DNA from: Hydrolagus affinis
Taxonomy: Eukaryota
NCBI GenBank assembly: GCA_012026655.1
Contig: JAAILG010000172.1
Span: forward strand, 62,001 to 126,000
Direction: 5' to 3'
DNA length: 64,000 nucleotides
Shown: positions 1 to 6,000 of the stretch, in pieces
Layout of the letters: each line of letters begins with the position of its first letter
Numbering within the stretch: position 1 is the first letter of the stretch
Program-made: the position numbers

Positions 1-3000
1 GATTTTACAGTAAAGCTCCAAACTTTCCAACTCAAAAAATTAAAAACAAATCACTTTCTCTGCTGGCTTTCATCAATCCCAGTTCAGATATTGTAAGCAA
101 ATTGCCATTGTACATTCAATGCAGTATATATATCCTGCGATAAAACTATTCATCTTACTGGGACCTTGTGAGTGGAGATAGATGAACTCCTGAAATAACA
201 CGTTAGATGGTACCTGATCATTTGGATTTTACTTCACATTACCCTTTTTGGGGTGAAACACATATTTTAGATAGATCTTTAAATGTAATAGAAATGATCA
301 TAACTCTATACAAAGCACACCATTCAAACTTATGTATTCATCCATAGTTATGTAAATGACTACCTCACAAAATGTTACTGTAATTAAATTTGGTTTGAGA
401 ACGCTTCTAAACAAGAAAAATGCTGTTTTCGCTAAATAGAAAATATGTTCGCAGATTATGGGCAAATTATTTCACCTGTTTCTAAATTGTTTCTTCTCCC
501 AAATAATTCTTCAGTCTAAAAATTGAATTTTGCTGGTGATTGAGAGGTTTGAGACCTTGCAGTGAAGTATGTTCGAGTATTTATCAGGTTCAGTCAATTT
601 ATGATGTGGATTTTGACTTCAATTATGTAAATGACATGGCTGGCAGTAAAATACAGTGACCAACAGCCTTGCCTGCTCCAAAAAATGTCACTAATTTAAC
701 TAACTAGTTGTGTCAAAGTACAGTCAGTATAACATAGCAAAAGACACACAATTTTGTATAAATGTAAAGGTCTGTCAGAATGATGAACAAAATCTGCATA
801 GAAAGGCTTGTTTTACAACACTGCAAGCTCTGAAACTTGGGATTGAGTTCACATGCCAAATTTCATTTTCAGCACAGATTCTAGAACCAGCAATCACAGT
901 GAAATGCTATTTTGACAAATATTGCATTGAACAGTTCAATTGGAATAAGTATGAATACTGAACTAACAATGGGCAGAAGGAAGTGACTAACAGTGAAGGG
1001 ATATATACTTCACAACCTCAGCAACCTCAGCAAAACACGTGCCATCTTTTTAAATTGTTCTTAGACCAAATGTGTTCAAAAAATCTTTCAGACATTTCCA
1101 CAGCTCATTGAATGATGTTAGTGAAGGGCTGACATGAAGCTCTTCACTCACATCAAAATACATGGCTGTCCAGTCGTGTGCCCTGCAAAACAGAAATGGA
1201 TCGAGACTCATTCTTGGTGTTTCAGCTCCCCAAAAAACGAAGCTATTAGGAACCAAAACATGTTCTGTAATGATACATTCAATCTATTTTTAAATTTAGG
1301 ATGAATGCTTCAGGAAGTTTAAAACCAACGCATCAGCTTCAATGACAGGAATAGTTTGTTCTCTTCAAATCCAGTCTGCTTTTTAACACTAATACAAGAG
1401 AAGGCTAACCAAAATGGCATCTTAGAAACATAACTGTAACTTAAGGTCATTACAGTACATGGCTACTGCACAAATTGAAACAAGAAGAACTCACAATCTT
1501 CTTGAGTGGCTGAGGCAAACCGGCACTGATTTTAAACCTGGGTCATTAGCAAGGAAATCTTTTCACCTTCACCGGGAAAGAGATTTCCATTGAAATAGGC
1601 TGTTTAGTTGAGCAAAGCTCCCAATTGATAACTTTGAATCACTGTAATAAGTTAATATCCTGCCAAAGGGCAGAACTGGCAATTGCCACATGTAAGGAGT
1701 TGTGTGACACAATTGGGACTTGCTCCCGACGTGAAAGGCGCTATACAAAGGTAATTTTGTTGTTGTTGTATTCACGAAGATCTTACCCAAGAAAACTAAC
1801 CTTAACACTGTCCTCATTTTTTCCCAATTGAAATGTGTTGATTTCTTTCTCGATATATTTGAAGTGTTTGTTCAATCTGGTTATGAGTTAGAAAAGCTTG
1901 CTAGTTCAGAGTTAGTCGGATTAGACTCTGAATTGTGCACAGCAGCTGAGCTCTAAACTAAGAATTTGTTTCTAACATTGTTTCATAGAAGAAAGAGTAG
2001 GTGTTAAAAACACCATAACACTGTTGAATCTACTGTCTGATACATTTGGTTTTGTCAATATTTCAAAACATTTAAAGCTGCAAAAGCAAGATAGGATTTA
2101 AAAATAAAAATAAAGTACTCCCCAAATATTTGGAACCTGAAATGTGAACATTTGTGCTTGCAATTCTACTGCAGTATGAGCACTGCAAGTGCATTGGGAT
2201 CAGAAAATCAACTCAGGCTGTGCTTCAGTCAGCTCTTAACCCTCTTAACTCCTGCCACTCCCACCCCCGCCAACCCATAGGCCAAGTATGTGCGTGCATA
2301 AAATTGCATCACAAGCCGATGAGACCAGATTGAAACACTAATGCTCACATTTAATTATTCTAAGTGAAAAAAAATCTCTACAATAAGGAGAGTTTTAGAT
2401 TTCTTTACCCTCTTAAGAGTTCTCCGGGTTAGTTTGGAGACTGCTTGGGCAGACAGATAAGGTGAAAATGACACATTCGTAGAAGCAGATAAGAAAGAGC
2501 AAATAAGAAATAAACAGCAGCAACATATTCCCTTCTTACAATCTAAGTTAAGGGGAATCTACATCCTGGAGGCGAGAGGCCTGAAGGTGATTAGGATTGT
2601 ATTGTTTTTGAACGGTTAAACCTAGAATCAAGGAGATTAATGGTATAATAAGATTCAGCAAATCTCAGCAACGGTAGTGTTGGTTCCTCCGCTGAAGCTA
2701 AAACTGCTGATCCATACTGTTGGGCCCATATATTGCGCAACACCATTCATATTGATTTTGGAGAGGAATATATAAAATTGTTGGAGAATTTAAGTTACAT
2801 GGGATTTTAAGAGCACTCTTAAGACATGCCCAATCAATTATTTAATCAAATACTTTAAACCTCTGCAATATTAGTATTTGTAGCCTGTTGAATTTGATGC
2901 TTGGTGTTCACTAAGCTTCCCATTTTGTTATAAACTTGTTCAAATCAGTCTCTCCATTGGAGGAGGCTGCACCATGTTCCACATCTCCACACGTGACCCC

Positions 3001-6000
3001 TCCTTCTCCTGTCGGCTGGGGCTGTAGGTCCCCTGTGTTGCTCTCTTATTCAAGGCCACAATGAAGGCTGCGAGAACTAGAAGCAGAATCAGCAACAGAG
3101 TCACGGTCACCAACCCAATGTACAGAAGAACTTCTGAGGTCCAAACGTCCAGGTCCTGTTGTACAGAGTCAAAACAGTTAAAGAAAAGTTTAACCCACAG
3201 AGGGTTAGCTTTGAAGCTGCCATGCTACGAAAAACACATTCAATTCTGAAGCCTCACAATAATTGCAATTCCTCCTAGGTTGTTTGATAATACAGTACAA
3301 TACAGGGAATACCTGGGACTTGCCGGATTTTTTAAAATATTCTTCCCAACATAAACACAACTCTTACACAGCACAGGTGCCTGAATGTATCAGATCAGCC
3401 GCTCCTCTGGTGGCAATTTGAGAGTACTGTTCATTTCCATCCGCGATCCAGTGTGTTCCTGATTGCTCGGGCTGTACGTTCCTTCAGTCTGACGCTTGTC
3501 ACGCAGTTTTAAAATCAGAACAAACAGAATGATAGCCAGGACTATCACTCCTGCAATGACGCACGGGACCACAATAGCTGCTATGTTTACTTTATAAGGT
3601 GCTGGATTTGTCTGTGAAAATAATTTTAGATTTTTATTAGAAATTCTCACAAAAATGGGACCAGGATCAATCTAGGCAGTCCCATCCTCACCATATTTTT
3701 TGTTAAGAATTGGAATGGCTCTGAGCTCTACATCATCCCCATTATGAGCAAACTGCACTTACACTATTTTTTGAAGCTTTATTAAAACATAAGTAGAACT
3801 TCTCTAAAGGAAAATAGAATTTATGTCCTTGTTTTGTTTCACCTTTGTGATGTAACTTGGCTCTCGAGTTGTCAATGTTGATTCCTGATCTGAAGTCAAG
3901 TGATCCTAGGCAGAATGGAAGTAGGGGCATAATTGCCCACATAACCCCCTGGTTAGGAAGCATTACGACTTCTGATTGCTACTTGTTGAGATGCCCATTA
4001 CACAGGGCAAGCGCAGAGATGTTGGCTGAGCTCAGGGTCGGGCAATGGATAGTTTCCAGTGGCTGTGGAAGCTTACCCAGTACCCAAAGGAGAGGGTGAA
4101 ATAAATGAAAAGATCCAGTGTAATAATTCTTTACTTTAAGATGGCTGAAGGTGAGATAGCTAAAGTCCAATGAGAATTGAGGCTGTAATTTAAAGTTAGG
4201 TCCCCAGCAAGGGAATCCACAATCACTGAATAGAATTAATGGATAACTCTAAGTTTGTCCTTGTATCCTACCAATTCGACTACCTTATTTATGCACAAGT
4301 TACTTGACCTTGCAGATTTATGAAGTGTTCGATTGCAAAAAAAAGTTCTAGAATAAAGCTATATTTTAAGCATGAAGTTCATTATTATTTAATATATTTT
4401 TAATTCAAAACATGTTTTTTAAAATCATGGCCTTCCTTCATGGGAAACATTTACTCAACAAAAGCACAAAAGATAGAAAGGTATTTTAAATGCAGTCAGT
4501 TTCTTGCAAGGTTACTTGTAGCCAGATGCATTCCTGGGACTAATTTCTCAATAGCTGTAGCACTGATCACTGTATCAATCTAACACTGTCCAATTAATGG
4601 CATTTGAAAGATTAAATGAAGTTTCAAAGGTAAGCCTACCTAGACATAGAGAACCAGTTTTATTGACCCCTTCATGTATTACAGCATGAAAGCTGAGTCC
4701 AATTCAAAACATAGATTAGAATGCTGTCAAGTTAAATCTATCAACTTACAGATGTGGTATTATCAGCAATTGTTGATTGTGAAGGATCTGTTACATTCGA
4801 CACTGCAAAGGAACCAACACTATCATAAAGATGTTACTGAATTGATGCAAATTTGTAATTTCAAAGTCAAGTCACAACTTTACCAGATAATCAACAAAAA
4901 TTGCAAACACCTGTCTCTTGTTATGAAGGAAGCTGTTAGTGTCCGCTGAGCACTTTTTAAAATATATCCTTTTTAAGGGCAGTTAAGGATTACATGACAG
5001 CAGGTAAGTGCTTTTAAGTCAGGGGAGAATTGCCAGGCCATCTTCATGTGATTCCAGAGCCTCAAGTACAGGAAAATAGCTCTGATCTGTGCCACAAAGT
5101 GACTTTGGGATATCAAGCCTCCTTTTTATGCAAAATGATGAATATAGACGTTTAAGAATGTTAAAAATTCTTAAACCTTAAAAAGGTTAAAACTGAAACC
5201 TTAGAAACTGAAAATGTGCATTTAAATTATGCATCACTTGCATGCAATATAGCTGGAAAAAATATGGCTATTCACAAAAGGTTTCTTAACTAGACAATGC
5301 TCTTTCAAACTAGATATTGCTCCTTTGACAAGTTACAAGCTATCCATTCTCTAGACTGCCTGCTCTCATTATTCAACAACAGGTACTACATGTTGAGCAC
5401 TGTTCTTCTAATGTGGTTCAGACAATAAAGATTAAGAACTATTGTTAGTGGTATTGTTTAGAGGGATTCAACAGATTGTGGCAAGGGCAAGTTGTGTTTT
5501 CAGATATACTTTAAAGAAATTTAAAGAAAGCCCAGACCTCTCTCTTTGGAGGCCCTAGTAGGGATCTAAGCCAGACTCAAGAGCTGTGACTGCACATTCC
5601 CACCAATTCACTGGTTGACCCAGTTTCTCTGGTATGGATTGATGCAACAGGCTGATTACCATGACATTCCCTGAATCCGAGTAAATGTGGAGCCTGGCAG
5701 ACTGCCCATTACAGGGTGTGCTGCCATTATACTTAAAGCTGAAACTAAAATTATACCTGTAAATCTCACTGGCTGAAAATGTTGTGTCTGTTACATATAT
5801 TTACACTTTGCAGTATATTCTGGGAAGCACTTTGAGATGTCTCAATGATGTGATAAGTCGCTATATCATATGCAAGGATGATTATTGTTATCAAACGTTG
5901 TATGGTTTAACATGTTATAATATATTAACATGGTATAATATTTTATACATGGTATAGCACAAATTTTCTAATGTAACTAATTTTCTAAGGCAGCCATTTT

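Follow-up and report, generated by a model that had tools for sequence, protein, structure and literature searches.

Apical polarity is organised by the tails of Crumbs proteins. One of the Crumbs genes, CRB1, is of major importance in retinal dystrophy, and its set of isoforms has lately been revised to take in CRB1-B. Each human CRB gene adjoins a DENND1 paralogue. Alternative C-termini have a precedent in the family, in that the passages of PMC4278252 on CRB3 describe CRB3A, which ends in ERLI, and CRB3B, which ends in CLPI, as splice variants. For CRB1, the passages of Ray et al. 2020 (PMC7335077) on CRB1-A and CRB1-B describe alternative promoters or first exons together with 3' exons that encode different transmembrane (TM) and intracellular domains. 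Here we analyse the CRB1 locus of the chimaera Hydrolagus affinis in a stretch of 64,000 nucleotides (nt) from contig JAAILG010000172.1 of NCBI GenBank assembly GCA_012026655.1 (positions 62,001 to 126,000), hereafter the window. In this locus the terminal exon of CRB1 (exon B) is preceded by a second complete terminal exon of the CRB3 type (exon A), which appears to be the last exon of a short unit nested in the last CRB1 intron.

The locus has features in common with each of the described systems and differs from each of them. Each of the chimaera tails can be aligned over its full length with that of Drosophila Crumbs (PDB 4wsi, 4yl8), including GTYSPS and ERLI, but the fly has one tail exon type. 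The two structures, whose records name only 'Protein crumbs', are presumably complexes with PALS1-type and Moesin FERM partners. Vertebrate CRB3 is a short protein that combines a signal peptide with a tiny ectodomain, a TM segment, a binding site for FERM proteins and an ERLI terminus that binds PDZ domains. The chimaera short unit would encode the same elements; however, the alternative tail here is a second complete TM and ERLI exon of CRB1 rather than a CLPI end. Moreover, mammalian CRB3 is a separate locus, whereas the chimaera unit lies inside CRB1. A read-through of chimaera CRB1 exon 11, termed 11b, resembles the private 3' exon of CRB1-B as it is described in the passages of PMC7335077. 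The conserved polarity motifs are missing from the tail of CRB1-B but present, as GTY and ERLI, in exon A, and the passages do not mention a CRB3-type exon. In chondrichthyan CRB3(-like) and CRB1 gene models (NCBI Gnomon, UniProt) the A tail likewise occurs on short and long proteins, but exon A is given either to a separate gene or to CRB1 and the nested, tandem layout is unstated. What sets the chimaera locus apart is the second complete CRB3-type exon with TM segment, GTY and ERLI beside that of CRB1 itself, together with the nested short unit; the arrangement is already implicit in the public models, whose annotation is inconsistent across sharks, rays and chimaeras, the same exon being 'CRB3-like' in some species and 'CRB1' in others. 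A full-text search of the literature returned no description of a CRB3-type unit in CRB1 or in the CRB-DENND1 neighbourhood.

All features described lie on the minus strand of the window. The tandem terminal exons and the interval between them are as follows.

3390..3611, minus strand: exon A, CRB3-type terminal exon, from translation and homology
3156..3389, minus strand: spacer of 234 nt from the stop of A to the acceptor of B
2940..3155, minus strand: exon B, canonical CRB1 exon 12, from translation and homology

Exon A follows an AG acceptor at 3613-3612 and consists of 73 codons (3611-3393) and a stop codon (3392-3390), which encode an ectodomain stub, a TM segment and a 37-residue tail that contains GTY and ends in LPPEERLI. 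Exon B, behind an AG acceptor at 3157-3156, consists of 71 codons (3155-2943) and a stop codon (2942-2940) and has the same arrangement of ectodomain stub, TM segment and GTY-containing tail, with PPPMERLI at its end. Judged by eye, each exon encodes about 27 hydrophobic residues, a basic stop-transfer stretch and then 34-37 residues. Both therefore have the features of a Crumbs tail, namely a single TM segment followed by a short tail with GTY and ERLI. Pfam holds no family that covers tail A or tail B, and both match the Drosophila Crumbs tail, with E values of 6e-10 (A) and 3e-09 (B). In an alignment of 18 sequences ERLI is invariant, as is the G of GTY, while the Y is nearly so and the middle T is variable. 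Conservation of these motifs predicts that both tails would bind the PALS1 PDZ domain and FERM proteins. The FERM-binding motif reads GNY in four elasmobranch short proteins and GTY in chimaeras and tetrapods.

The two tails are related far above chance, with 22 of 36 residues identical (BLASTP, E 1e-14). In their DNA alignment no more than 103 of 242 columns are invariant; the duplication is hence old, and a recent origin of the pair, or gene conversion between the two exons, is ruled out. We regard the two as old paralogous Crumbs terminal exons. Exon B matches named CRUM1/CRB1 fragments, and shows 74% identity over 93% of its length to a partial 'CRUM1' of Polyodon, with the last 30 residues identical; by this homology and its PPPMERLI end, B is identified as the canonical CRB1 exon 12. 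A second CRB1-type tail, ending in PPPTERLI, is found in a 99-residue UniProt protein of Callorhinchus milii; its identity to exon B is only 69%, and thus it derives from another locus, and B-type tails may be present in more than one chondrichthyan gene.

Two upstream exons provide donors that could be joined to these acceptors.

14922..15048, minus strand: CRB1 exon 11, the last EGF exon, from sequence, frame and colinear tblastn matches to C. milii and catshark CRB1
4750..4802, minus strand: 53-nt exon of the short unit, with a phase-1 acceptor and a phase-0 donor, from its frame and its C. milii match

Exon 11 ends on a codon third base at 14922 and is followed by the donor GTAAGC (GT at 14921-14920), and 4750 is likewise a codon third base, in the frame reading SNVTDPSQSTIADNTTS, followed by GTAAGT. 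The acceptors of A and B, which are 456 nt apart and have comparable pyrimidine tracts (10/20 for A, 12/20 for B), place codon first bases at 3611 and 3155. These two acceptors and two donors are thus of phase 0 and each of the four pairs (14922 or 4750 with 3611 or 3155) is in frame. A common phase of A and B is, however, what descent from one ancestral exon predicts, and since this compatibility is inherited it adds no weight to the swapping of tails. An earlier reading of this DNA from its sequence alone had reported two TM/ERLI terminal exons 234 nt apart, both with GTY and ERLI, one with a CRB1 tail and one with a CRB3-type tail, and had called them interchangeable. Translation confirms the coordinates, the spacer, the motifs and the phases, and homology to named proteins bears out the identity of both tails. 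Of the proposed interchangeability, the anatomy and the frames hold, while the step from shared frame to exchange does not follow.

Homology searches were run exon by exon. Against short proteins, exon A gave matches at E<=0.001 to 8 of 9 candidates. These are the 'protein crumbs homolog 3' of C. milii (121 residues, 97% identity), 'crumbs homolog 3-like' proteins of Mustelus, Carcharodon, Narcine and Mobula (118 residues each, 78-86%) and three tetrapod CRB3 proteins (49-67%). No second CRB3 of any chondrichthyan species was present among only these 9 word-sharing candidates, which is weak evidence for its absence. In the short relatives a signal peptide and a short N-glycosylated stretch precede the equivalent of exon A. 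The 53-nt exon supplies the second of these elements: it encodes 17 residues, 16 of them shared with the CRB3 model of C. milii, and contains two N-x-T sites. If it is joined to exon 11 the frame reaches a stop after 3 codons, and the 53-nt exon therefore belongs to the short unit only. A CRB1 transcript that included it would yield a tail-less, secreted-type ectodomain or a target for decay. The first element is provided by a candidate exon further upstream.

7861..7954, minus strand: signal-peptide exon of the short unit, with ATG at 7954 or 7939 and a phase-1 GTAAAC donor after 7861

The phase-1 donor of this exon suits the phase-1 acceptor of the 53-nt exon. With a profile built from four elasmobranch N-termini, its open reading frame (ORF) ranks first of the 2,906 six-frame ORFs of the window, and the 400 bases upstream contain 10 CpG with an observed/expected ratio of 0.61 (window median 0.32, 95th percentile 0.63). 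The assignment at 7954/7939-7861 is moderately supported. Taken together, three phase-fitting exons would encode a signal peptide, a tiny ectodomain of the N-glycosylated type, a TM segment and ERLI, which is the layout of CRB3. From this layout and its homology, we identify exon A as the terminal exon of a short unit of the CRB3 type that lies, on the same strand as CRB1, within intron 11, the last intron of that gene.

The window also contains a counterpart of the first coding exon in the Gnomon CRB3 model of C. milii.

5671..5727, minus strand: counterpart of the C. milii first coding exon, with 14 of 19 residues identical

As a 5' exon in the chimaera this segment was rejected: it encodes no signal peptide, and splicing from its GT donor would not keep the frame of the 53-nt exon. 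An upstream extension of the 53-nt exon of the C. milii type (4803-4851, minus strand) was likewise rejected and contains an in-frame stop in the window. The 5' end of the public C. milii CRB3 model is probably wrong.

The gene that surrounds the short unit is compact and has the structure of CRB1. Stop-to-stop frames and tblastn with named cartilaginous-fish CRB1 proteins place its exons colinearly from about 40.6 kb to 2.9 kb. The encoded residues are 83-94% identical to C. milii CRB1, apart from two high-scoring segment pairs that overrun exon ends (69-71%), and 58-82% identical to catshark CRB1, values that mark the DNA as holocephalan but not of C. milii, and as not human. Pfam finds EGF/hEGF and Laminin_G domains in the four CRB1 exons tested, and the gene thus encodes a large EGF-repeat ectodomain with laminin-G domains that is colinear with named CRB1. 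Against this background both terminal exons look constrained: A, because its 97% identity to C. milii compares with 83-94% for the ectodomain exons, and B, because its last 30 residues are those of the paddlefish.

Public gene models show which tails have been joined to which ectodomains. Against longer proteins exon A matched 5 of 60 candidates at E<=0.001, all of them named CRB1 and all from cartilaginous fishes (Heptranchias perlo, Scyliorhinus torazame X1, Chiloscyllium punctatum X4, Chiloscyllium plagiosum X1 and a UniProt entry of C. milii). In the four NCBI shark models the end of exon 11 is joined directly to a complete exon-A equivalent, which corresponds to a 14922>3611 junction, and the boundary coincides with that in the short proteins. 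The identity of the tail to exon A is 78-86% over the whole exon in these sharks and 94% over 70% of it in C. milii. The short unit with tail A is modelled in five cartilaginous fishes. Exon B, in turn, gave 33 matches among 41 short candidates, and none of the 10 that are named is a chondrichthyan short unit with tail B. The sequence-only reading had allowed for both exchanged products. A long ectodomain with a CRB3-type tail finds support at the level of annotation, in the four shark models and in a C. milii model with an odd acceptor, and a mini ectodomain with a CRB1 tail finds none in cartilaginous fishes.

The named matches to exon B were compared further through 8 non-mammalian sequences. 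In the elopomorph models (Synaphobranchus, Albula and Anguilla) a complete B exon comes after a degenerate stretch of the A type that covers the juxtamembrane part and the tail. The A-type tail in these models looks degenerate in that it has GSF instead of GTY and ERLL with read-through, and two parts of the Synaphobranchus model match exon A by BLASTP (E 6e-06 and 8e-13). In the percomorph models (Sander and Astatotilapia) an A-type ectodomain stub and membrane segment run into a B-type tail, with 47% identity to exon A over 74 residues in the case of Sander. These teleost hybrids join inside the tail and do not represent clean junctions of the 4750>3155 type. The recurrence of the order A then B in the elopomorph models means that the order is neither an assembly error nor specific to one lineage. 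A search of exon B against an unnamed library of representatives clustered at 50%, a level that hides isoforms, gave 178 matches at E<=0.001 and 23 at E<=1e-10. One unnamed representative of 181 residues matches the tail of exon B in two separate stretches and is possibly a read-through model of a tandem A and B.

Of 11 poly(A) hexamers searched for (AATAAA, ATTAAA and 9 variants), none is present in the 234-nt spacer (3389-3156). In keeping with this, a pre-mRNA that extends as far as A would be expected to carry the acceptor of B as well. The first canonical signal past both stops is the following.

2841..2846, minus strand: ATTAAA, 94 nt beyond the stop of B

The next canonical signal is at 2355. 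The ATTAAA at 2846-2841 is the probable shared 3' end of the A and B mRNAs.

These data suggest a model in which A and B form one composite 3' end. The short unit would start from a promoter of its own near 7.9 kb, where its signal-peptide exon also lies; the 53-nt exon (4802-4750) and exon A would follow, and A-type mRNAs would run through exon B as 3' untranslated region to finish at the 3' end of CRB1. On any pre-mRNA, whether it starts from the CRB1 promoters or from that of the short unit, the acceptors at 3611 and 3155 would compete for the upstream phase-0 donor of exon 11 or the 53-nt exon. Because every such pre-mRNA would contain both acceptors, it would be the regulation of splicing, rather than the limits of the transcripts, that pairs promoter with tail. 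The main products would be the short unit with A, a CRB3-like protein, and the long ectodomain with B, which is CRB1-A. The long ectodomain with A is probably a real isoform, perhaps a tissue-specific one, and the short unit with B, although possible, is without support here. We favour this composite arrangement with moderate confidence.

Several observations weigh against it. The match of the signal-peptide ORF is not significant on its own (E 0.33), and the C. milii CRB3 model has a different 5' exon. A noncanonical poly(A) site may be present in the spacer. The long models with A are automatic gene predictions, which possibly took the first in-frame homologous terminal exon, and that of C. 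milii enters exon A within the membrane segment, at an implausible internal acceptor. No holocephalan long protein with B was found among the best 150 of the 178 representatives, where the best identity was 79%. Finally, annotation of the short unit as a separate gene in five species fits equally well a locus of two independent units without swapping, in which the nested gene always ends in A, CRB1 always ends in B and the long models with A are artefacts. This arrangement is a less probable but serious possibility. It agrees with the separate 'crumbs homolog 3(-like)' models of 118-121 residues in five cartilaginous fishes, with the presence of a private signal-peptide exon and of a 53-nt exon whose frame does not suit exon 11, with the extreme conservation of exon B and with the odd internal junction of the C. 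milii long model, which is typical of homology-forced models and looks to be one. It does not readily account for the identical, clean junction of exon 11 with exon A in the NCBI models of four shark species, nor for the lack of a poly(A) signal to insulate A from B, as a result of which CRB1 pre-mRNA would offer both acceptors, that of A first.

At the other extreme both donors would be used with both acceptors to give four proteins, and with 11b the long form would have three C-termini. In favour of this, no pair is out of frame, the acceptors are both canonical and similar in their pyrimidine tracts, and the Sander and Astatotilapia models do join a mini N-terminus and an A-type membrane segment to a B-type tail. 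We nevertheless consider such free combination unlikely: frame compatibility is inherited, none of the 10 named short matches to exon B is a chondrichthyan mini protein with B, and the teleost cases are hybrids within the tail, in fishes where the A tail looks degenerate, rather than clean 4750>3155 junctions. That exon A is a decaying duplicate, or the tandem layout an artefact of assembly, is highly improbable. Decay is seen in the A-type tail of elopomorphs, but in exon A of the window the frame, the acceptor, GTY, EERLI and the stop are all intact, and the exon is nearly identical to its C. milii counterpart; the order of A before B is implied by independent shark and teleost models, and the window contains zero N bases.

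Further termini of CRB1 were located in the window.

14814..14921, minus strand: '11b', read-through of exon 11, from translation
53796-53876, minus strand: likely CRB1-A exon 1, with a start ATG, a stretch like a signal peptide and a GTAAGT donor of phase 1
31144-31209, minus strand: candidate CRB1-B-type first exon upstream of exon 6, from a heuristic scan for hydrophobicity and donors only

In 11b, exon 11 is extended by 35 codons, among them those of a hydrophobic stretch of membrane type, up to the stop at 14816-14814, and an AATAAA lies 21 nt past this stop (14793-14788, minus strand). Its anatomy matches that of a CRB1-B-type alternative C-terminus. The segment at 53796-53876 is likely to be CRB1-A exon 1: the first seven residues are shared with the CRB1 models of bamboo sharks, its phase-1 donor suits the phase-1 acceptor of exon 2 at about 40585, and it lies within the strongest CpG cluster of the window (53.1-55 kb, with up to 19 CpG per 400 nt). 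The candidate at 31144-31209 combines an ATG with a hydrophobic stretch and a GT donor of phase 1. The three C-termini that the sequence-only reading had counted for the locus are all present as open frames. Of its three signal-peptide exons, those at 53876-53796 and 7954/7939-7861 are supported, and the third, near 31209, comes from the heuristic scan. The CRB1 introns also contain many scattered copies of a repeat that resembles a tRNA-derived short interspersed nuclear element (for example at 32173-32532, 43262-43471, 49059-49235 and 54193-54387) and is visible as recurrent pseudo-ORF strings in both orientations, as well as a second repeat with recurrent strings of the 'KCKDYYY' type.

The gene models already place the origin of the tandem layout, as judged from sequence, before the separation of bony and cartilaginous fishes, since relics of the A type stand beside the CRB1 terminal exon in ray-finned fishes. 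More tentatively, a nested unit with its own TM/ERLI exon ahead of the long-form terminal exon could be the ancestral Crumbs layout of jawed vertebrates, perhaps from before the two genome duplications, in which case tetrapod CRB3 would have been derived from such a nested unit by loss of the long-form exons and not by stepwise truncation of a long gene. On this reading cartilaginous fishes would to this day make both CRB1 and a CRB3-type protein from a single locus, and a CRB2/CRB3-type EERLI tail could be placed on a CRB1 ectodomain. We regard this as doubtful, and the date before the duplications and the derivation of CRB3 are both conjectural. A locus with a CRB1-type and a CRB3-type TM/ERLI exon, both complete and conserved, next to one another would mean that the identity of the tail is selectable by splicing and not by the gene alone; it would also offer a concrete, testable route to the origin of the short CRB3 protein and constitute a natural experiment on the equivalence of MERLI and EERLI tails.

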